13,400 bases of DNA from a virus (taxonomy: Duplodnaviria; Heunggongvirae; Uroviricota; Caudoviricetes). Each line of letters starts with the position of its first letter. Position 1 is the first letter of the stretch. The notes beneath the pieces are model-generated. The model was given only the letters and a program-made list of their open reading frames with translations, searched no databases and was not told where the DNA came from. The translations under genes were made by a program, and so were the position numbers. The stretch lies in IMG/VR virus record IMGVR_UViG_2565956633_000006. One strand, written 5' to 3'. Positions 1 to 13,400 of the stretch are shown in pieces.

Positions 1-1284
1 TTACAGACTTCTGGAAGGTTGCGCAGCTCTTACAACACGCGGTTGATCTTCCGCGGCGTCTTCCAGCGCACTTAAATCACGGTCTTTCACTTCTGGCATT
101 TTCAGCGCAGAGATTAAACCAATCACTGAATATGCCATGATCATAATGGCGATCGGATACCAGGATTCCGTCATGGTGCAGAAAATACCCGCCAGGATAG
201 GACCAAAACCGGAAGCGATAAGACCACCAATTTCTTTAGAAATAGCCATCCGGGTAAAGCGGTTTTTACAGCCGAACATTTCTGCCATGGTAATATTTTC
301 CAGAGCAAATAATCCCAGCACCGCACAGTTATGAATCACAATCAGTGCAACCATAATGGTGCTCGGGGCATAGCTTTTATCTACGATGATAGAAAGCATT
401 GGCCATGCCAGCACAATCGCGGAGGTATTCATAATAATATACGGGATCCGGCGACCAATTTTATCGGATAACCAACCAAGGAACGGAATGGTCATAAAGC
501 CGAGAATCGAACTGATCATCAATGCATCTGTTGGAATTGCTTTGTTAAACAATAACGTCTGCACTAAATAGCCCGCAAGGAAAGTCTGAATTAAACCTGA
601 GTTACCCGCCTGACCAAAACGCAGCCCTGTTGCCAGCCAGAAGGATTTGCTCTGGAACATGCTACCAGCAGGTGCAGGTTTTGCTGTCGGTTGGTTGCTG
701 TCGTTAACCTTCTCAAAAACCGGGCTTTCTTTCAGATTCATACGCAACCAGATAGCAAAGACCATCACGACAACGCTCGCCAGGAACGGTATACGCCATC
801 CCCACGCCAGCAGTTCCTCTTTACTGAGAATGAAGAACATAAAGGCCCAGATTGCCGTTGCGCTTAAAGTTCCGCAGTTAGTTCCCATAGCCACAAATGA
901 GGAGATAATTCCGCGCTTACCTTTTGGCGCATATTCCGCCAGCATCGTACCGGCACCGGAAATTTCCGCACCTGCACCCAATCCCTGAATAATACGCAGC
1001 GTCACCAGCAAGATAGGGGCAAAAACACCAATCTGTGCATAGGTCGGTAACACACCAATTAAGGTGGTACAGATCCCCATCATGGTGATGGTAATAAAGA
1101 GCACTTTTTTACGCCCTATTCTGTCGCCCATTTTGCCGAAAATAAATGCTCCGACAATACGCGCCACATAACCTGCACCGTAGGTTCCCATTGCCAGAAT
1201 TAACGCCATTGCCGTTGATGATTCAGGAAAAAATATTTCATGAAACACTATCGCTGCGCCGAGCGAATATAACTGGAAATCCAT
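1..1284 (-). CDS. ydfJ: MFS (metabolite:H+ symporter family) transporter, N-terminally truncated at the prophage junction
   Basis: 427-aa ORF with many hydrophobic helices and GRK/R motifs typical of MFS. The product starts at MDFQLYSLG, aligning with the conserved (W)YDF..YG motif of MHS transporters, so about 25 N-terminal residues are missing. ATG at 1282-1284 has no convincing Shine-Dalgarno upstream. Stop at 1-3. Confidence 0.8.
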   Translation of the reverse strand: MDFQLYSLGAAIVFHEIFFPESSTAMALILAMGTYGAGYVARIVGAFIFGKMGDRIGRKKVLFITITMMGICTTLIGVLPTYAQIGVFAPILLVTLRIIQGLGAGAEISGAGTMLAEYAPKGKRGIISSFVAMGTNCGTLSATAIWAFMFFILSKEELLAWGWRIPFLASVVVMVFAIWLRMNLKESPVFEKVNDSNQPTAKPAPAGSMFQSKSFWLATGLRFGQAGNSGLIQTFLAGYLVQTLLFNKAIPTDALMISSILGFMTIPFLGWLSDKIGRRIPYIIMNTSAIVLAWPMLSIIVDKSYAPSTIMVALIVIHNCAVLGLFALENITMAEMFGCKNRFTRMAISKEIGGLIASGFGPILAGIFCTMTESWYPIAIMIMAYSVIGLISALKMPEVKDRDLSALEDAAEDQPRVVRAAQPSRSL

Positions 1285-3308: not shown

Positions 3309-3884
3309 CTACGGCAGTGCTGGCCATTCAATATCCTGTGCAGTTGACGTATCAACACGGTTCAGCAATACCCGATACTTTTTCCATGCTTCCAGCAACG
3401 AGATTTCTTCCTCCGTTGCAATTTCCAGATCTGCAGCATCCTGAAGCGGCGCAATATGCTCACTGGCTACCTGCATCAGGCTGTTTTTTGTTTCTTCCGC
3501 CTCCCGGATCCGGAACAGTTTTTCTGCTTCCGTATCCTTCACCCAGGCTGTGCCGTTCCACTTCTGATATTCCCCTCCCGGCGATAACCAGGTAACATTT
3601 TCCGGTAACGGACCGAGTTCAGAAATAAATAACGCGTCGCCAGAAGCCACGTCATAAACCGTTTTACCCCGATGATCTTCAACGAGATGCCACGATGCCT
3701 CATCACTGTTGAAAACAGCCACGAAGCCTGCCGGAATATCTGGCGGTGCAATATCGATACTGTTTGCTGGCAGACCTGTATGAGGCGGAATATATGCGTC
3801 ACCTTCACCAATAAATTCATTAGTTCCGGCCAGCAGATTATAAATTTTTATGGTCCGTGGTTGTTCACTCATTCTGAATGCCAT
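3309..3884 (-). CDS. tfaQ: Tail fibre assembly protein (lambda Tfa-like), 191 aa
   Basis: Tfa-family product; start ATG overlaps the stf stop as TAATG at 3882-3886, indicating translational coupling. Confidence 0.9.
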
Positions 3885-4801
3885 TATGCAAGCCTCACAA
3901 TATAGTTAAATGCGATGTTTTTGACGGTGTTTTCCGCGTTACCAGCAGCGTTAACGGTGATGGTATGTCCATGTGAACCAATCGCAACGGAGTGCGTATG
4001 AGCACCAATACCGACAGTATGTGCGTGTGCACCTGCGCTTGCAGCAGTACCCGATACAGAGTGCGTATGAGCGCCTGCAGAAGAAGTGTTAACACTGTAT
4101 TTAGAATAATCAGGTGATCCACTTCCCGGAGCACCACTGGAACCACCTGAAACAAATGTCATCGAATGGGTATGTGCACCGGCTGAAGCAGCCGTACCGC
4201 TAACACTATGGGTATGCGCACCAGTGTTATTCGTGGATTTAGTGCCGTAATCAAACGACGATGTGGTTTTCGTCCCCAAATCCGTACTGGATACGCTGGC
4301 GCTGTGGGTGTGTGATTTAATGCCGTCCTGTTCCTGAGACAATACGGCTCGATCACTGGCGGGCTTGCCCTTAATCGTCCAGCCACGCATATCAGGGATC
4401 ACGCCTGACGGATAAGCGGCTGCAAGTTTCGGGTAAGCAGATTTGTCAAAAGTCTGCCCCTGCATCAGGGCATAACCAGACGGAACGGTATCTGATGGCC
4501 ACGGGATTGGTGCACCGACTGGATAAAACTCTGCAGGAGGATGAGCCGAGGTGTAAAGCTGCGCCCACGGCGACCAGTTTGCGTCGGTCGTATCCCGTCG
4601 TGAACGAATAAATGCCGGAGCATGAGCACCGCTTGTACCACTCCAGCCGATGAGTAACTCACCTTCGCCAACGGCTGTCATCCCTTTCAGGTGAATGATA
4701 TTTCCATACGCTGTTGGATATCCGTTGTTATACACCTCGTATAACTCAAGACCTGTTGCCCCCTGCGTATTGTCTGTCAGCGCGGTTACCCGCGTATCGT
4801 T
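3884..4801 (-). pseudogene. stfQ: Side tail fibre protein, C-terminal fragment (lambda Stf-like)
   Basis: Open frame from the stop at 4802-4804 down to the stop at 3884-3886, with no ATG near the 5' end (first start-like codon is GTG at 4733-4735, without an SD). Product carries repeated GAHTHS...[10 protein letters not shown] His-rich motifs and ends ...[11 protein letters not shown] as in lambda Stf. Confidence 0.85.
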
Positions 4802-4851
4802 TCATCGGCGCGGGCAATGGCAGCATCGAACAGGTTATCGGAATCAGCCAC
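4786..4851 (-). pseudogene. Remnant of lambda FII-like head-tail joining gene (first 21 codons only)
   Basis: GGGAGG followed by GTG GCT GAT TCC GAT AAC CTG TTC GAT GCT GCC ATT GCC CGC GCC GAT GAA ACG ATA CGC GGG TAA, i.e. [21 protein letters not shown], matching the lambda FII N-terminus ([21 protein letters not shown]) as I recall it. Start is GTG here, and the frame stops where the stf-derived sequence begins. Confidence 0.6.
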
Positions 4852-4862
4852 AGCGCCTCCCG

Positions 4863-5258
4863 TTATTGCATTCTGGCCAGGCCATGTTCTGTCATTTCGG
4901 CTGCCACACCGGCAGAGACACGAAACGCCGTTCCCGGCAGCACAAATGCCACAGGCTCATCCCGCGTGGCGTGAAGTGCATCAGTATGCAGCGTCACCAG
5001 TGCCACGACCGTGACCAGAGCAGCCGTATCAATCACGGTATCCGGCTGCGCTGATACCACCTCATTTTCATGTCCGGTCAGCGCATTTTCCGGGCTGACA
5101 GATGTGTCCTGACCGGCAGCGTCATCCGTGTCATCAAGCTCCTCTTCCAGCTCTGCCACACGGAGCACCAGTTCTTCTTTCGTCCCCGTCAGGCTGACAT
5201 CACGGTTCAGTTGCTCACCCAGCACCTGAAGACGGGCAATCAGTTCATCTTTCGTCAT
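4863..5258 (-). CDS. Lambda FI-like DNA packaging protein, 131 aa
   Basis: Product from the internal ATG at 5256-5258 (MTKDELIARLQVLGEQLNRDVSLTGTKEEL...) matches lambda gpFI; strong SD (GGAGGAG) upstream. The longer ORF-track start at 5297 lacks an SD. Confidence 0.85.
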   Translation of the reverse strand: MTKDELIARLQVLGEQLNRDVSLTGTKEELVLRVAELEEELDDTDDAAGQDTSVSPENALTGHENEVVSAQPDTVIDTAALVTVVALVTLHTDALHATRDEPVAFVLPGTAFRVSAGVAAEMTEHGLARMQ

Positions 5259-5279
5259 GGACTCCTCCACAGAGAGAAA

Positions 5280-5297
5280 ATGGCCCCGAAGGGCCAT
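5280..5297 (-). terminator. GC-rich hairpin between the E remnant and FI (ATGGCCC-TTCG-GGGCCAT on the minus strand, then TTTCTCTCT)
   Basis: Perfect 7-bp stem with a 4-nt loop, followed by a U-rich tract on the coding (minus) strand; could act as attenuator or mRNA stabiliser. Confidence 0.35.
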
Positions 5298-5299
5298 GA

Positions 5300-5866
5300 T
5301 TACGCCAGTTGTACGGACACGAACGCATCAGGATCAGCCAGCAGCATCAGCGGTGCTGACTGAATCATGGTGAACTCACGCGCCGGATCGCCGGTGGTCA
5401 CCCAGTTTTTCGGGTAGCGGGCAGAGGCGTTAATACCTTCGCGCTGTGCGTCCGCATCCTGAATGCAGCCATAGGTGCGCAGACCGCGTGCCTGAGTGTT
5501 CCCCAGCACCATCGTGTTGTCCGGCAGGAAGTTCTTTTTGACGTCGTTTTCCACGTACTGTCCGGAATACACGACGATCGCCGTATCGCCATACATCCCC
5601 TTATAGGACACCGCTTCGCCCAGGTCTTTTACCGCTGTCTCCAGCTCGGAATTAGAGCCGCGACGGGTATCCAGCTTCTCCTTGACGGCTTTGAAGGAAC
5701 GGAACAGCGCCCAGCCTTTCGGATCAAACACGATGATATTCACCACGCCGCTGGCGTTCAGCGCGTAGGCTTCGATATCGTCGGTCGGGTCATACGTGGA
5801 CTTGTCACGCTTGCTCCACTCCGTGCCGCCGGACTGCGTGATGTTGTTCGCCGCACTGCGGCCCAT
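5300..5866 (-). pseudogene. Major capsid protein (lambda gpE-like), C-terminal remnant of about 188 codons
   Basis: Product ends ...NTMVLGNTQARGLRTYGCIQDADAQREGINASARYPKNWVTTGDPAREFTMIQSAPLMLLADPDAFVSVQLA, matching the C-terminus of lambda E; the 5' half is absent and replaced by the Nu1-like gene. Confidence 0.85.
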
Positions 5867-6372
5867 ATCAGTTCATCCAGCGCGGCTGCTTTGTTCATGG
5901 CTTTGATGATATCCCGTTTCAGGAAATCAACATGTCGGTTTTCCAGTTCCGGAAAACGCCGCTGCACCGACAGGGGGATCCCGTCGAGAATACTGGCAAT
6001 TTCACCTGCGATCCGCGACAGCACGAAAGTACAGAATGCGGTTTCCACCACTTCAGCGGAGTCTCTGGCATTTTTCAGCTCCTGTGCGTCGGCCTGCGCA
6101 CGCGTAAGTCGATGGCGTTCGTACTCAATAGTCCCTGGCTGGAGATCTGTCTCGCTGGCCTGCCGCAGTTCTTCAACTTCCCGGCGCAGCTTTTCGTTCT
6201 CAATTTCAGCATCCCTTTCGGCATACCATCTTATAACGGCGGCAGAGTCATAAAGCACCTCATTACCCTTGCCACCGCCTCGCAGAACGGGCATTCCCTG
6301 TTCCTGCCAGTTCTGAATGGTACGGATACTCGCACCGAAAATGTCAGCCAGCTGCTTTTTGTTGACTTCCAT
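5758..6372 (-). CDS. nohA: Terminase small subunit Nu1 homolog with altered C-terminus (fusion to out-of-frame capsid-gene sequence)
   Basis: First ~168 aa (MEVNKKQLADIFGASIRTIQNWQEQGMPVLRGGGKGNEVLYDSAAV...) match lambda Nu1 nearly residue for residue; the tail (..WAAVRRTTSRSPAARSGASVTSPRMTRPTISKPTR) is read from E-derived DNA in another frame. Confidence 0.85.
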   Translation of the reverse strand: MEVNKKQLADIFGASIRTIQNWQEQGMPVLRGGGKGNEVLYDSAAVIRWYAERDAEIENEKLRREVEELRQASETDLQPGTIEYERHRLTRAQADAQELKNARDSAEVVETAFCTFVLSRIAGEIASILDGIPLSVQRRFPELENRHVDFLKRDIIKAMNKAAALDELIWAAVRRTTSRSPAARSGASVTSPRMTRPTISKPTR

Positions 6373-6620
6373 TGTTCATTCCACGGCCAAAAACAGAGAA
6401 AGGAAACGACAGAGGCCCAAAAGCTCGTTTTCAGCACCTGTCGTTTCCTTTCTTTTCAGGGGGTATTTTAAATAAAAACATTAAGTTACGACGAAGAAGA
6501 ACGGAAATGCCTTAAACCGGAAAATTTTCATAAATAGCGAAAACCCGCGAGGTCGCCGCCCCGTAACCTGTCGGATCGCCGGAAAGGACCCGCAAAATGA
6601 TAATAATTATCATCTGCATG
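6373..6620 (-). other. Lambda-type cos packaging site (cosN 12-nt cohesive end at 6550..6561, with cosB toward nohA and cosQ on the other side)
   Basis: Reverse complement of 6481-6563 reads GGGGCGGCGACCTCGCGGGTTTTCGCTATTTATGAAAATTTTCCGGTTTAAGGCATTTCCGTTCTTCTTCGTCGTAACTTAA, nearly identical to the lambda left end as I recall it, including cohesive end GGGCGGCGACCT. Confidence 0.8.
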
Positions 6621-6760
6621 TCACAACGTGCATCTACGCCATCAAACCACGTCAAATAATCAATTATGACGCAGATATCGTATTAATTGATCTGCATCAA
6701 CTTAACGTAAAAACAACTTCAGACAATACAAATCAGCGACACTGAATACGGGACAACCTC

Positions 6761-6994
6761 ATGTCAACGAAGAACAGAACCCGCAGAACAACAACCCGCA
6801 ACATCCGCTTTCCTAACCAAATGATTGAACAAATTAACATCGCTCTTGAGCAAAAAGGGTCCGGGAATTTCTCAGCCTGGGTCATTGAAGCCTGCCGCCG
6901 GAGACTGTGCTCAGAAAAAAGAGTTTCTTCTGAAGCAAACAAAGAAAAGAGTGACATTACTGAATTGCTCAGAAAACAGGTCAGACCAGATTGA
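6761..6994 (+). CDS. ynfO: Small ribbon-helix-helix-like protein, 77 aa (lambda right-end ORF homolog)
   Basis: Basic N-terminus (MSTKNRTRRTTTRN) followed by IRFPNQMIEQINIALEQKGSGNFSAWVIEACRRRL, which has the beta-strand/helix/helix pattern of RHH (Arc/CopG) DNA-binding domains; sits beside cos as in lambda. Confidence 0.75.
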   Translation: MSTKNRTRRTTTRNIRFPNQMIEQINIALEQKGSGNFSAWVIEACRRRLCSEKRVSSEANKEKSDITELLRKQVRPD

Positions 6995-7051
6995 AGCAAT
7001 TTAGATAATCGTGCAGACTACGCCCCCTCATATCACATGGAAGGTTTATCT

Positions 7052-7462
7052 ATGGATCAGGTAGTCATTTTTAAACAAATATTTGATAAAGTTCGAAACG
7101 ATTTAAACTATCAATGGTTTTATTCTGAGCTAAAACGTCACAATGTCTCACATTACATTTACTATTTAGCCACAGAGAATGTTCATATTGTATTAAAAAA
7201 TGATAATACAGTGTTATTAAAGGGCCTAAAAAACATTGTGTCTGTCAAATTTTCAAAGGATAGGCATCTTATAGAAACGACCTCTAATAAGCTGAAATCC
7301 AGAGAGATCACATTTCAGGAATACAGAAGAAACCTTGCTAAAGCAGGAGTTTTTCGGTGGGTTACAAATATCCACGAACAAAAAAGATATTACTATACCT
7401 TTGATAATTCATTACTATTTACTGAAAGCATCCAGAAAACTACACAGATCTTACCACGCTAA
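7052..7462 (+). CDS. ydfO: DUF1398-family protein (YbcV/YdfO family), 136 aa
   Basis: ORF 7037..7462; second ATG at 7052 ([14 protein letters not shown]...) has GGAAGG 7 nt upstream and is the likely start. Confidence 0.8.
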
Positions 7463-7470
7463 ACCATAAC

Positions 7471-7499
7471 GTCCGGCTTCTCTCACTCCTGAGCCGGAC
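7471..7499 (+). terminator. Hairpin downstream of ydfO (GTCCGGCT ... AGCCGGAC)
   Basis: 8-bp GC-rich inverted repeat with a 13-nt loop, 9 nt after the ydfO stop; no clean U-tract, so function uncertain. Confidence 0.3.
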
Positions 7500-7613
7500 T
7501 GCATTGGTTTAATAAAAACCATCAACAATTGTGATTTAGATATTCGGAACCATTCAAATATAACAAAACCCCGTAAAAACGAGGTTTATGGATAAATTTT
7601 ATTATTGAATACA

Positions 7614-7787
7614 TCAGATTAAATTAATCTTGACATCATAGCTTTCAAGACCCGTCATTTTTTCCCGTGCGGTAAACTGAATACTGGTAACTTCTTTCCC
7701 GGTCTTTTTCTTAAGTTCAATAATTTTTTTTGTTATATATTCAGAAATATCTGCTTCTGCTTTTGTTTTTAAGTTTTCAATATTCAT
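7614..7787 (-). CDS. gnsB: GnsB-like small protein, 57 aa (MNIENLKTKAEADISEYITKKIIELKKKTGKEVTSIQFTAREKMTGLESYDVKINLI)
   Basis: Absent from the ORF track (under 60 aa); translated by hand from the minus strand. ATG at 7785-7787 with GAGGAA upstream; product resembles GnsA/GnsB. Confidence 0.8.
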   Translation of the reverse strand: MNIENLKTKAEADISEYITKKIIELKKKTGKEVTSIQFTAREKMTGLESYDVKINLI

Positions 7788-7958
7788 CATTTCCTCTTTT
7801 AGTCTGTTATGACTTTCCAGTTACACAGTAAGTCGATTATATGGTGCAAACGTGTAAAAGATAAGATGAAACATCGCAATAATCAACATACGATAGTCTA
7901 AATTTTACACAAACAGACAAAGAAAATTTTCCTGAATTATCAATACAATAGCATCAAA

Positions 7959-8114
7959 TCAACTCAAGAGCCTTATTGCTGCTTCCAGAATTTCTTCTGA
8001 AGTAACATGTCGATCCGCGGCTACATAAATGACTTTATGATCTCCGGTCAGAGATGGAAACCCTGCGGCCATTACAGTAAGGTGTGTTTTTTCGCCATTT
8101 GGATATTCACGCAT
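7959..8114 (-). CDS. ynfN: Small prophage protein YnfN-like (51 aa from ATG 8112-8114); start uncertain
   Basis: ORF track gives 7959..8231 (90 aa, TTG start). In-frame ATGs lie at 8189 and 8114; the 8114 start has GGAG about 11 nt upstream. A strong minus-strand terminator at 8233-8253 sits immediately upstream of the longest form. Confidence 0.5.
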   Translation of the reverse strand: MREYPNGEKTHLTVMAAGFPSLTGDHKVIYVAADRHVTSEEILEAAIRLLS

Positions 8115-8232
8115 GATGGTGTTAACTCCAGTCATCGCTGGCACTACCACTGCAGGTTCAGAGTTAAAAAAAACTATGATTTTTTTCATGATGTTACCGT
8201 AGTATGTGAGTATCCATCGAATAGATACCAAG

Positions 8233-8253
8233 CAAAAAAGCTCCCGAAGGAGC
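8233..8253 (-). terminator. Rho-independent terminator (GCTCC-TTCG-GGAGC followed by TTTTTT on the minus strand)
   Basis: Perfect 5-bp GC stem, tetraloop, then six U residues on the minus-strand transcript; about 205 nt downstream of the cspI stop. Confidence 0.6.
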
Positions 8254-8460
8254 CTTCATTTTCACTTTTTTAAATCCAACGACAGACGGCTGGCATTTAA
8301 GTATTGTGAAATATTATCAAATGTAATCATCATTGATTTACAAAAGATACATTTTGCCCCGAAAGGATTCATGTCAGAAACATCAAAAGATGATGTTCTA
8401 TACTGGGAACCATGACAACACGGGCATCTAAAGTGAATATGGTTTGTAATATTGTCTACC

Positions 8461-8673
8461 TCAAAGCGCCACTACATGAACAGCGGCAGGACCTTTAGGT
8501 CCGTTCTCAATACCAAATTCAACTTCCTGATTCTCAGTTAATGTTTTGAAATCGTTGCTCTGAATTGCTGAGAAATGGACAAACACATCTTTGCTGCCAT
8601 CTTTCGGCGTGATGAAACCAAAACCTTTTTCAGGGTTAAACCATTTCACTAAACCAGTCATTTTGTTAGACAT
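8461..8673 (-). CDS. cspI: Cold-shock protein CspI (CspA family), 70 aa
   Basis: [38 protein letters not shown]... with RNP1 (KGFGFI) and RNP2 (VFVHF) motifs; long leader region upstream. Confidence 0.95.
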
Positions 8674-9037
8674 AATTATTACCTTTTGAAGAAATTAGCC
8701 CTTGGGCAGAATGGTCCGAAAAAAAAATATCAGAGAGAAAAACCAACAAGGAAATCTCAAGAGGTACAAATAATAAAATTATAACAATGACTGCTTCAGA
8801 TAAATTTGTAACAAACCAGAACACCATTAACGCATGATTAACCACCCATAGCAAGGATTACTTTTGTAAAGAAAAACACAGCAATGAAAGAATAGCTTTA
8901 TTTATTAATAATAACGTGTCATTCTGATTAAGACCTTTTATCTTACCCTTAAGATTTCAGGAATTTTGGCTCATGGAAGAGTCCTTTTTATTTAAATTTT
9001 ACATTCCGCGATGTAAATGTTCCGATTTAATATTACC

Positions 9038-10061
<1,024 letters not shown>

Positions 10062-10065
<4 letters not shown>

Positions 10066-10373
10066 ATATATTTATGATGAGGACGCTCGTGCTTATTGGC
10101 AGGATTTTCAATCTTAAAGGAGTACTGATGCTGCAGATAAGACTCAACTTTTTCTGACAATTTTTCTGCTACTTCCAGGAAGACTTGCCGGACGCTCCTT
10201 CTGGCTGCTGCCTCATAAAACTCCAGCGCAGCTCCTTCAACACGGTCCATGGCGACATCCAGGTCAAAAATTTCACCGTCAAAGCGTTCTTTGTCCTGTA
10301 AGGCTACAGTTACCGTAACTTTATTCTCAAAATTACGGACTCCTTTCACAACCAGTTCATAGTCTTGAGTCAT
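10062..10373 (-). CDS. ydfR: Uncharacterised protein inserted between holin and endolysin (DUF1327 family), 103 aa
   Basis: Intact ORF, 4 nt after the holin stop and overlapping the endolysin start (ATGA); acidic, predicted soluble. Confidence 0.8.
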
Positions 10374-10377
10374 TGGA

Positions 10378-10593
10378 TTACTCTCCTCTCGCAGCCTTAC
10401 GCCTGTCTTCTTTAATCTTGAAATAAAGATTTGTCAGATACGTCAGCAGGCCAAAAACCAGGCTACCCAGCACACCGATTGCAGCCCACTGTGACGGAGT
10501 TACTTTATCGAGTAACTGCAATGCCCAGAAACCAGCATTACCCGCCGATGTGCCATAGGCAACACCTGTTGTTAACTTATCCATTGATTTCAT
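10378..10593 (-). CDS. essQ: Class II holin / pinholin (phage 21 S-like), 71 aa with dual-start motif
   Basis: [71 protein letters not shown] resembles S21; Met1-Lys-Ser-Met4 dual start; GAGG SD upstream of the ATG at 10591-10593. The longer track ORF (to 10668) is upstream read-through. Confidence 0.9.
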
Positions 10594-10812
10594 ATCCTCA
10601 CCCCGATGTACACGGATGGTGCAATATGTTTGAAAAGATCGGAGTCTACGGGGTAGTTTTGACAGCACACGTTGTTCTCAACGGCGCTAAAAAAACATAC
10701 ACATTAAAAATGTGGGTAATTATTTTGAAAGAAAGTCATATATAAAATAATAATACGAGAAATGTTTTCATATTTAGTGTACTGTATACGGCCATTTATA
10801 CAGGAAAAGCCT

Positions 10813-10983
10813 ATGTCAGAACGTAAAAACTCAAAATCACGCCGTAATTATCTCGTTAAATGTTCCTGCCCAAACTGCACCCAAGAGTCAGAACACAGTT
10901 TTTCAAGAGTACAAAAAGGTGCCCTTTTGATCTGCCCTCATTGCAACAAAGTATTCCAGACAAATCTTAAAGCTGTAGCCTGA
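10813..10983 (+). CDS. ynfU: Small zinc-ribbon protein, 56 aa (MSERKNSKSRRNYLVKCSCPNCTQESEHSFSRVQKGALLICPHCNKVFQTNLKAVA); possibly ynfU
   Basis: ATG at 10813 with AGGA 7 nt upstream; two Cys pairs (C-x-C-P-x-C and C-P-x2-C) form a putative zinc ribbon; basic N-terminus. Symbol assigned from memory of a Qin small zinc-binding protein, not verified. Confidence 0.5.
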   Translation: MSERKNSKSRRNYLVKCSCPNCTQESEHSFSRVQKGALLICPHCNKVFQTNLKAVA

Positions 10984-11040
10984 TTGATTTTATTAGTAAC
11001 AAGTATTTTTTATATTTTAATAATATATTTAAAGCAGATA

Positions 11041-11065
11041 ATAAAAAACCCGCCTGAGCGGGTTT
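11041..11065 (-). terminator. Rho-independent terminator (AACCCGC-TCAG-GCGGGTT followed by TTTTTTAT on the minus strand); weakly bidirectional
   Basis: 7-bp GC-rich stem with tetraloop and a U-tract on the minus-strand transcript; downstream of cspB and convergent with the zinc-ribbon ORF. Confidence 0.6.
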
Positions 11066-11346
11066 GAGATTGTGGTGCTTTTTGTGGGAGTCATCCACTT
11101 ACGCACTTTGTTTTGCCATGCCAGCAGTTAGCTTCTGCTGTAAAACTATTCATGCAGCAAACCTGCACTTCACCACAATGGTTAGCATACTTTTCCTGAT
11201 TAAGATTTTGCCAAATATGCTAGCCATTGTTTCATGTATTGGACCTCCTTACTTTTTATTAAAGAGATCCAATATTCACTACTCTGTCCGTATCTCTACT
11301 CAGGCATCAGCCTTCTTCGTTATCGTATACAGACGAGCGATGAATT

Positions 11347-11562
11347 TTAATCAGTAATGATGACATTTGCTGCTGCAGGACCTTTAGCACCACTCTCTAT
11401 AGAGAAGGTAACCTTTTGACCTTCAAATAAGGTTCGATAATTATCATTCTGAATCGCAGAAAAATGCACAAACACATCTTTACTACCATCAACAGGAGAA
11501 ATAAAGCCGAAACCTTTATCAGCGTTAAACCATTTTACTAAACCAGTCATTTTATTTGACAT
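11347..11562 (-). CDS. cspB: Cold-shock protein CspB (CspA family), 71 aa
   Basis: [38 protein letters not shown]...; AAGGA SD 7 nt upstream of the ATG at 11560-11562. Confidence 0.95.
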
Positions 11563-11862
11563 TCTACATTCCTTAACTTGAGCCTTTCGGCATAAATGGT
11601 TTGCATAACAGAAACGACTTCGTACTTAATTGGAGAGACTCAAAGAAGGAATAAGTGAATAACACCTGAAATGAGAACTGCTTTAGTAAACTACTTCGTA
11701 TATCGTCTGTTCTTCAAACCGACGCAATCATTAACGCATAGTTGAACATATGAAGCAATGTTTATTTTAGACATCCAGCCATCTTCAACCCCATCAAAAA
11801 ACTATAGCTTTCTTCAGGAACGTGTGTATAGTGCGCCAAGTTATCAGTATTAAGGAATTTTT
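11563..11862. promoter_or_regulatory. Divergent cspB/cspF control region (promoters and long 5' leaders)
   Basis: 300-bp AT-rich spacer between divergently oriented csp genes; contains a repeated ACTTCGTA motif (11615-11626 and 11691-11705) in the expected cspB leader. CspA-family genes are known to carry long regulatory 5' UTRs. Confidence 0.5.
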
Positions 11863-12075
11863 TTGTCCCGTAAAATGACAGGAATTGTCAAAACCTTTGA
11901 CGGCAAAAGCGGCAAGGGTCTTATCACCCCATCCGATGGTCGTATCGATGTCCAGCTTCATGTCTCAGCGCTCAATCTCCGCGATGCAGAAGAAATTACC
12001 ACCGGATTACGCGTGGAATTTTGCCGGATAAATGGTCTGCGTGGCCCTTCAGCTGCCAATGTTTACCTTTCATGA
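11863..12075 (+). CDS. cspF: CspA-family paralog CspF, 70 aa, with degenerate nucleic-acid-binding motifs; probable TTG start
   Basis: [38 protein letters not shown]...; start codon at 11863 is TTG with AAGGA 6 nt upstream; RNP1/RNP2 aromatic residues are replaced (KGKGLI, VQLHV). Confidence 0.9.
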
Positions 12076-12361
12076 GCTATATTAAAGCTTTAATTTCAGG
12101 CCCCATCGGATCACACATGGAGAGTTTTTATGAATAACCCCGTCTGTCTTGATGACTGGTTGATTGGCTTTAAAAGCTTATGCTGTACTTTGGCCGTAAT
12201 AGCTCTGCTAATAATATAATAAGCAGACTCATTGTGTTTAGGGACATTGTACTGGAAGAAAACATTTTAAACATCAGGCAAATAACCAAGTCACCAGCTA
12301 AATAATAAGTTAACAGACATGAGTCCCGGGATGAGATTCAACATTACCATTGCCCCATTTA

Positions 12362-12400
12362 AAGCACAAAACCCGCTCATCAGCGGGTTTTCTACTTTTT
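12362..12400. terminator. Bidirectional rho-independent terminator (AAACCCGCT-CATC-AGCGGGTTT with T-rich flanks on both strands); candidate tR'
   Basis: 9-bp stem; the plus strand continues TCTACTTTTT and the minus-strand transcript continues TTTTGTGCTTT. Confidence 0.6.
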
Positions 12401-12436
12401 CTTAACGTCGGGTATACAAAGCCCATCGTTGAAAAA

Positions 12437-12465
12437 ATTTTATCCATATTTTTTGAAAAATGCAA
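12437..12465 (-). promoter_or_regulatory. Candidate sigma70 late promoter (pR'-like): -35 TTGCAT, 17-bp spacer, -10 TAAAAT, on the minus strand
   Basis: Hexamers read from the minus strand just downstream of the quuQ stop; a terminator hairpin lies about 40-60 nt downstream, as in lambdoid pR'/tR' units. Confidence 0.35.
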
Positions 12466-12496
12466 ACATCATGTCGCCATCTTCAGCAAAAATCAT

Positions 12497-13249
12497 TTAT
12501 CTCGTCACCTTCCTCAATTGCGCTTCCGCGTATGCTTCTTCCTGCCAGCACTTTGTTACCAGTTTACCAATGACGTCCGCATACCCCTTATACCACTGAT
12601 AATCGGTCAGGTCTGGTACCAGCTTCTGGACATGACGTCGTGCCAGCGTGGTCGGTAAACGACTAAACCGGTTTCCATTACAACGCCCACAAATCTTATA
12701 TACCGGTACGCCATGAAACCGGGTTCTTTTTTCATCCAGAACAATCCCTTTACCCTTACACCCTCTGCACGCTGTGCTGGCTTCGCCCTTACCATGGCAA
12801 TGCTGACATAGTTCCTTCACCCATTCTTCCTTGATTACAGATTCCCCGCGTCTGTAGTGTTTCACCACTTCGCGCAATACATTATAAAATCCCGTACCTG
12901 AACAATGCTCACAGCGAGCCTTACTTGCCGCAGACCTGGAGTAATCAGCAAAGGCAAAACTCACGAGGTAAGGAATAATCTGTAACCGGATTTCTTCACT
13001 CAATTTGTTCAATGTCGGGTTATCCAGTGCCATCGCGTAATTTAGCAGGCCTTCAATCGCAAACTGAGGGTCCTGAACACCAACTTTTGCCAGAAATAAG
13101 GCCAACCCAAGTGGTGCTTTCGACTGCACCATCCCCTGCGCTGCCATTACATCCGTAATTGTTAAACAACCGGTGCCTGTCGCTGGAGCGTCATCGCTCA
13201 ATTTTGGAGATTTTGGGGAGTAATATTTTGGTAAGGCTTCAAGGTTCAT
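12497..13249 (-). CDS. quuQ: Late-gene antiterminator Q-like protein, 250 aa
   Basis: Cys-rich zinc-binding region (CEHCSGTG...CQHCHGKG...CRGCKGKG...CGRCNG) typical of phage Q antiterminators; ATG at 13247-13249 has GGAG 7 nt upstream. The track start at 13279 is TTG with no SD. Confidence 0.9.
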   Translation of the reverse strand: MNLEALPKYYSPKSPKLSDDAPATGTGCLTITDVMAAQGMVQSKAPLGLALFLAKVGVQDPQFAIEGLLNYAMALDNPTLNKLSEEIRLQIIPYLVSFAFADYSRSAASKARCEHCSGTGFYNVLREVVKHYRRGESVIKEEWVKELCQHCHGKGEASTACRGCKGKGIVLDEKRTRFHGVPVYKICGRCNGNRFSRLPTTLARRHVQKLVPDLTDYQWYKGYADVIGKLVTKCWQEEAYAEAQLRKVTR

Positions 13250-13262
13250 GCTCGTTCTCCAC

Positions 13263-13400
13263 TTACGCCAGTACGCCAATTGCCAGCGCGCGATCGATAA
13301 AACGAAATATCAGCTCCAGTTGGGAGCCATACTTATCTTCAAATGCCACTGTATCCGTATGCAGCTCGTTGTGATGCTTTCTGCACAAAGGCAACACAAA
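13263..13400 (-). CDS. ydfU: 3' end of a ydfU-like prophage gene (partial; 5' end beyond window)
   Basis: Open minus-strand frame to the window edge ending ...FVLPLCRKHHNELHTDTVAFEDKYGSQLELIFRFIDRALAIGVLA with stop at 13263-13265, 13 nt upstream of the quuQ start. The C-x2-HH-x3-H pattern is HNH-like. Confidence 0.6.
   Translation of the reverse strand, partial: FVLPLCRKHHNELHTDTVAFEDKYGSQLELIFRFIDRALAIGVLA

Follow-up and report, generated by a model that had tools for sequence, protein, structure and literature searches.

The window, i.e., the whole stretch of 13,400 nucleotides that was analyzed, carries on its + strand an open reading frame (ORF) that begins with an ATG at position 10813 and ends with a TGA at positions 10981-10983; its 56-residue product is MSERKNSKSRRNYLVKCSCPNCTQESEHSFSRVQKGALLICPHCNKVFQTNLKAVA. 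This ORF is ynfU, a gene already known, annotated and translated, and is not a discovery. The features of the locus are collected in Table 1.

Table 1. Features of the ynfU locus, with their positions in the window.
Feature	Position	Strand	Basis or remark
Holin gene, P21-type	10378-10593	-	PF04971
Alternative sigma-70-like promoter match, TTGAAA-18-AATAAT	10725-10754	+	Consensus scan, 10 of 12
Candidate promoter block	10757-10785	+	GAGAAA (10757-10762), 17-nt spacer, TACTGT (10780-10785)
Shine-Dalgarno sequence AGGA	10802-10805	+	7 nt before the ATG; AGGA/GGA kept in 20 genera-level sequences
ynfU CDS (56 aa + stop)	10813-10983	+	Basic N-terminal tail, CPNC and CPHC putative zinc knuckles, invariant SEHS
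GC-rich hairpin between ynfU and cspB	11046-11065		Terminator scan and RNA folding; 63 nt past the ynfU stop
cspA-type 5'UTR thermoregulator of cspB	11331-11723	-	Rfam RF01766, 158.8 bits
cspB, convergent with ynfU	11347-11562	-	PF00313 (CSD), 9.8e-32
cspF, second cold-shock-domain gene	11863-12075	+	PF00313, 5.6e-22
Q antiterminator gene	12497-13249	-	PF03589

Identity, translation and surroundings of ynfU

The identity of the gene is given by the following comparisons: (i) a stretch of 601 nucleotides around the ORF has 100% DNA identity with K-12 MG1655; (ii) at the corresponding coordinates the RefSeq K-12 annotation reads "ynfU: putative zinc-binding protein YnfU" (b4776), in the interval between the holin gene and cspB of the Qin prophage; (iii) the K-12 YnfU of Weaver et al. 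(2019) has the identical sequence of 56 residues, the same CPxC pair and the same position, essQ - ynfU - cspB. The product belongs to the YnfU family according to both family profiles, i.e., PF23499 (YnfU), matched at 107.3 bits (cut-off 27; E 3.5e-31) over profile positions 1-49 of 49, and the NCBIfam model NF038384 (YnfU family zinc-binding protein), matched at 79.4 bits (cut-off 36; E 1.1e-22) over positions 1-51 of 52. Annotated since 2019, ynfU has curated Pfam and NCBIfam families as well as a published translation.

Weaver et al. discovered the gene with Ribo-RET, which profiles ribosomes stalled in initiation complexes; in SPA-tag western blots of an uninduced K-12 culture, no other newly found small protein reached the level of YnfU (10.1101/511675). 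Its translation was detected independently by PIRT-seq (PMC12350097). The sequence-only reading of this DNA had proposed a small ORF of 56 residues with a good Shine-Dalgarno sequence and had left its translation to be checked; the published detections, the AGGA motif and the RefSeq coordinates, which are the same, all bear it out. Later papers cite ynfU merely as an example, or list b4776 among genes without literature, and a paper on silver nanoparticles reports a low-frequency polymorphism in the ynfU/cspB intergenic region and nothing more on ynfU. When the literature was searched for a function of ynfU or b4776, no biochemical or genetic study was found; a search for a cold-shock link or for cold-induction data on ynfU likewise gave nothing relevant.

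ORFs with the pattern CxxC-10..30-CxxC number 2 in the window vs. 0.02 per shuffled window, i.e., they are about a hundredfold rarer in the shuffles; the ynfU ORF is thus not a chance feature. The sole other ORF of the window with a CxxC...CxxC pattern is the Q antiterminator, which also contains a DnaJ-type CxxCxGxG domain (PF00684; 35.4 bits for a cut-off of 32.7). In a Klebsiella phage, the protein at the position corresponding to Q (upstream of the lysis genes) is annotated as "molecular chaperone".

Over positions 5866-13400 the window is 99.7% identical to the Qin prophage of MG1655; positions 4073-5865 (tail-fibre and nohA side) are divergent, with no or partial alignment to K-12 Qin. 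The gene itself is without any difference from K-12 ynfU, whereas the surrounding Qin-like prophage is not exactly that of MG1655. A full-length Rfam match to IS009 (RF02111, 221 bits) was found at 3343-3541 on the − strand, within the tail-fibre-assembly gene region according to the K-12 mapping. Of 5426 complete E. coli genomes, 1653 contain the 601-nt ynfU region, which IS1 or IS200 elements interrupt in some E. coli strains.

In the direction of the − strand, ynfU is preceded by the Q antiterminator gene and cspB and followed by the holin gene, a DUF1327 gene, the lysozyme gene and a DUF2514 gene, all of them on the − strand. Both the holin gene and cspB are encoded on the − strand and ynfU on the + strand; the claim that the gene runs opposite to the flanking lysis and csp genes is therefore correct. 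Another match to the cspA thermoregulator family of Rfam (111.9 bits; the gathering score is 78) is located at 8434-8820 on the − strand and comprises the 5'UTR and the start of a cspI-like gene. The spacer between ynfU and cspB measures approximately 360 nt in Escherichia and Citrobacter and approximately 90-250 nt in most other genera. Nothing recognizable was found in its part 11066-11346, and the Rfam matches at ynfU and in the spacer amounted to chance hits produced by the terminator hairpin.

Conservation of YnfU and its putative zinc ribbon

Homologues were collected from contigs of one genome per species, which gave 80 loci and 64 distinct proteins of 51-60 residues. The family is very small, with 49 clusters (90% identity) among 5.8 billion proteins of one collection and 41 representatives at 50% identity in a profile search of 1.84 billion proteins. 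Nearly all members come from Enterobacteriaceae, the few records from other taxa being metagenome-assembled genomes (MAGs) or short contigs. Four ynfU contigs (L016, L038, L048 and L050) are filed as genomes or MAGs of Veillonella, Vagococcus, Kocuria and Bacillota, and a csp gene adjoins ynfU in three of the four; these taxon labels probably reflect contamination or mis-binning with DNA of Enterobacteriaceae.

YnfU has five cysteines: C17, C19 and C22 in the motif CSCPNC, C41 and C44 in the motif CPHC. All 64 distinct proteins have in common the six residues C19, P20, C22, C41, P42 and C44, and in the same set R4, K5, N12, L14, S26-E27-H28-S29, R32, K35, G36 and L39 are invariant too. C17 is kept in 61 of the 64 and is missing in all nine full-length distant members that were retrieved; it is thus not a required ligand. 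CPxC...EHS...CPxC is kept in eight of these nine distant members, the exception being P0076, which has EQS and CTRC. Pairwise dN/dS between genera ranges from 0.05 to 0.3, with synonymous sites often saturated, and indicates that the YnfU protein is under purifying selection.

The whole protein contains 10 Lys plus Arg vs. 3 Asp plus Glu (pI 9.6; net charge of about +7), and its N-terminus is basic. On all these points the sequence-only reading was well founded: the two Cys pairs with the signature of a four-Cys zinc ribbon are present, their four cysteines are conserved in the homologues, and the N-terminus that it had called basic is so. The spacing of "about 23" residues between the pairs needs a correction, since the linker between C22 and C41 has 18 residues; a figure of 22-24 is obtained when counting from the first Cys of the motifs. 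The pattern of conservation suggests that C19, C22, C41 and C44 are most likely the zinc ligands, and that together they would bind a single zinc ion within a zinc ribbon. Weaver et al. had already remarked on the pair of CPxC zinc knuckles and, by threading, on a similarity to the PA0128 zinc domain (10.1101/511675).

An AlphaFold2 (AF2) model built from an alignment of 26 sequences has low confidence (mean pLDDT 57.9); its predicted strands (13-16, 27-32, 38-40 and 47-49) flank the knuckles. Foldseek comparison of this low-confidence model with the PDB gave no match at E <= 0.001, and the top entries, none of them significant, are zinc ribbons: PA0128, proteins of the eL42 and eL43 types, the regulatory chain of ATCase and the A12 subunit of RNA polymerase I. 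The model may be read as "zinc-ribbon-like" and at no finer level. A profile search of PDB sequences gave weak matches to Tim15 (DNL; E 0.012), L44e (E 0.028) and PA0128 (E 0.49).

The resemblances to known zinc ribbons are as follows: (i) the N-terminal zinc ribbon of PhnA/YjdM (PF08274; PA0128, PDB 2AKL) has in common with YnfU a CPxC...CPxC pattern of similar span, and Foldseek ranks PA0128 first (39% identity across 38 columns, at a non-significant E of 0.53); (ii) eL42/L44e and the archaeal zinc-finger proteins seen with ribosomes (PDB 9o17, 9fhl) are, like YnfU, small and very basic C4 ribbons, and L44e shares with it a CPxC-x-x-EHS stretch in a weak profile match, and many weak Foldseek matches are of this kind as well (E from 0.03 to 2.3 for the ribosomal-type matches as a whole, not significant); (iii) the DNL zinc finger (Tim15/Zim17/Hep1, PF05180) has the pattern C-x2-C...S-x-H-S...KG...CPHC in common with YnfU (E 0.012). 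YnfU differs from PhnA in that it stands alone, without the C-terminal domain of PhnA, and has SEHS and RVQKG motifs of its own; the D(N/H)L motif that follows the second knuckle in DNL proteins is absent from YnfU, which has CPHCNKVFQTNL there. The scores of YnfU, i.e., 22.4 bits for PF08274 (E 1.3e-4) and 13.5 bits for PF05180, lie below the respective cut-offs of 30.8 and 27 and are thus taken as a similarity in the class of fold, without membership in these families.

With five cysteines and one invariant histidine among its 56 residues, YnfU could also be a metal-handling or redox-sensing protein that buffers zinc or acts as a thiol switch, and not mainly a protein that binds nucleic acids or a partner. 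A preprint on hypomagnetic fields reports ynfU as up-regulated alongside suf genes and labels it an iron-metabolism gene, a label for which evidence is not supplied. This reading is very improbable: in all the neighbours found, a CPxC...CPxC pair set in a beta-hairpin serves as a structural zinc site, a polyanionic ligand is indicated by the net charge of about +7 and by the invariant basic residues R4, K5, R32 and K35, and no metal-homeostasis genes adjoin ynfU in the loci inspected.

Expression signals around ynfU

Approximately 80 nt upstream of the ynfU start are conserved across genera, and an A-rich patch lies further upstream. Across genera the −35-like hexamer reads (A/G)AGC(A/T)A, with an invariant G, and the −10-like hexamer reads TA(T/A/C)(G/T)GT, with invariant T, A, G and T. 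The indels between genera in this block are not multiples of three, i.e., the block is non-coding. A longer ORF of 73 residues from an ATG at 10762 was rejected on the strength of these indels and of the start at 10813 in both RefSeq and Ribo-RET. The conserved block would serve as a promoter whose −35 element is weak. The TTGAAA-18-AATAAT match further upstream (Table 1) is just a candidate, since sigma-70-like sites in the region are no commoner than in shuffles (3 found vs. 2.6 expected). RNAalifold gave no pairs on the conserved upstream block, hence no consensus RNA structure, and the idea of an RNA structure or thermosensor in the 5'UTR of ynfU was rejected for that reason.

The sequence-only reading had let ynfU end at a shared terminator, which holds only in part. 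A GC-rich hairpin is indeed located between the convergent genes; in the scan it counts as a terminator solely on the − strand, with a T-run that serves cspB. In RNA of the + strand the hairpin also forms and is followed by UUUGAGAUUG, with just three U after the stem. It is therefore a strong intrinsic terminator for cspB and, for ynfU, a weak one at best. Approximately 280 nt separate the stop codon of cspB from this strong terminator; another terminator-like site is found at 11168-11152 on the − strand.

With so weak a terminator, read-through of the ynfU transcript into the 3' region of cspB is conceivable, and the two genes are convergent in 40 of the 80 loci. The transcript rather than the protein might then be the functional product, by antisense pairing or by transcriptional interference with the late operon and cspB. 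This is extremely improbable in view of the strong purifying selection on the protein with its invariant residues, of an ORF length held at 51-60 codons, and of the detection of the YnfU protein itself (10.1101/511675); an RNA effect could accompany the protein and cannot be the main constraint.

Coming back to ynfU as a protein-coding gene, the abundance of YnfU in uninduced K-12 implies that its transcription is independent of the Q-dependent late operon. The gene would have a conserved promoter of its own and need no late phage transcription, which would make ynfU a cargo gene, i.e., a moron.

Genomic context and the cold-shock genes

A gene with a cold-shock domain (CSD) is found within 1.2 kb of ynfU in 58 of the 80 species-level loci (L014-L093), and 48 of these 58 csp-linked loci are without a Qin-type lysis gene or Q gene nearby. 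A convergent cspB-like gene is placed directly downstream of ynfU in half of the loci (40/80), followed in 26 of the 40 by a divergent cspF-like gene; of several arrangements the commonest is ynfU -> <- cspB cspF ->. By a rough estimate, an enterobacterial genome has about 9 csp genes in 4-5 Mb, and a random site would lie this near to one of them in well under 1% of cases. In the other 22 loci no CSD gene was found within 1.2 kb of ynfU. The chromosomal loci of the distant members P0061 and P0068 were examined and have no csp neighbour; the linkage is thus not universal. Since the species are related, much of it could be synteny inherited within one bacterial family rather than functional coupling. 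No description of the ynfU-csp linkage was found in the literature on ynfU.

Homologues of the Qin-type holin, lysozyme or Q are present within 5 kb of ynfU at only 10 of the 80 loci, and 70 are without them; phage genes were detected here only by homology to these three Qin proteins, so that phages of other types could escape. Loci of Enterobacter, Klebsiella and Lelliottia were inspected gene by gene and show ordinary chromosomal neighbours. In Enterobacter, ynfU has a tautomerase gene on one side and an HTH or EF-G-like gene on the other; in Klebsiella, the chromosomal ynfU has a CSD gene and a PTS operon downstream; in Lelliottia, a gene of the ydfK/ynaE (cold-shock) family is immediately upstream and a convergent CSD gene on the other side, near uvrC. 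Among phages, 2H10 has the gene order holin - ynfU - cspB - cspF - Q, the same as Qin. In a Klebsiella phage ynfU adjoins the holin gene and csp genes are absent; in phage PHB10 it adjoins two csp genes, in a region with an integrase and umuDC and no annotated lysis genes.

These distributions bear on the suggestion, made by the sequence-only reading for small zinc-ribbon proteins of prophages, that the product is a regulator or an anti-host factor. YnfU would then serve the phage, by acting on host transcription, superinfection exclusion or lysis timing. In E. coli the gene is indeed prophage-borne and accessory (it is present in less than a third of the complete genomes, as counted above) and occupies the Q-holin interval, a classic place for cargo; it is kept in the genomes of phages 2H10, Tritos, HannyBb, PhiR42_1 and a Klebsiella phage, and 241 relatives of YnfU are found in viral contigs of IMG/VR. 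A phage-serving role is nevertheless unlikely and finds little backing: Qin-type lysis or Q genes are rare around ynfU, the inspected loci of the three genera have housekeeping neighbours, and high levels of YnfU are seen without induction of its cryptic prophage (10.1101/511675). Moreover, no family of the PADLOC defence models matched YnfU at E <= 1, and the PHROG search gave no significant match. The mainly chromosomal location of the family and its near-confinement to Enterobacteriaceae argue against a phage-specific role.

In lambdoid phages, morons are cargo genes located between Q and the lysis cassette, e.g., stx in Stx phages. The gene ynfU occupies the same site, after Q and before the holin gene, and its dispensability can be read from the E. 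coli genomes that are without it and from the 70 loci without Qin-type genes. Like morons, it has AT-rich flanks, a candidate promoter of its own and expression in the uninduced lysogen (10.1101/511675). Unlike a typical moron, the cargo is here a three-gene cassette, two genes of which are read against the late transcript; and its counterparts in other genera are mostly chromosomal.

Taken together, the ORF is best explained as the known, translated YnfU of a Qin-type lambdoid prophage: a putative zinc ribbon, carried as self-transcribed cargo in a ynfU-cspB-cspF cassette. We give this reading as a whole a probability of about 0.9. The cassette, chromosomal in other Enterobacteriaceae, would have been acquired by Qin-type phages.

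What the protein does is a further question, to which the recurrent neighbourhood of csp genes offers a tentative answer. YnfU may be a partner of the adjoining cold-shock proteins: it would bind RNA or the ribosome and act with, or modulate, chaperones of the CspB/CspF type, the trio being a mobile stress cassette. We consider this possible but doubtful. The most speculative step is the binding itself, i.e., that the basic zinc ribbon would recognize RNA, the ribosome or a partner protein; it is likewise speculative that YnfU would work in the RNA-chaperone physiology of Csp proteins rather than in phage development. The residues to be addressed by mutagenesis are defined: the putative ligands C19, C22, C41 and C44 (not C17), the SEHS motif, R4, K5, R32, K35 and G36.

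The recurrent linkage of ynfU with csp genes is a small new lead beyond the existing annotation, and it provides a concrete, testable hypothesis. If it is true, Qin-type phages would carry the ynfU-cspB-cspF trio to the benefit of their lysogens.
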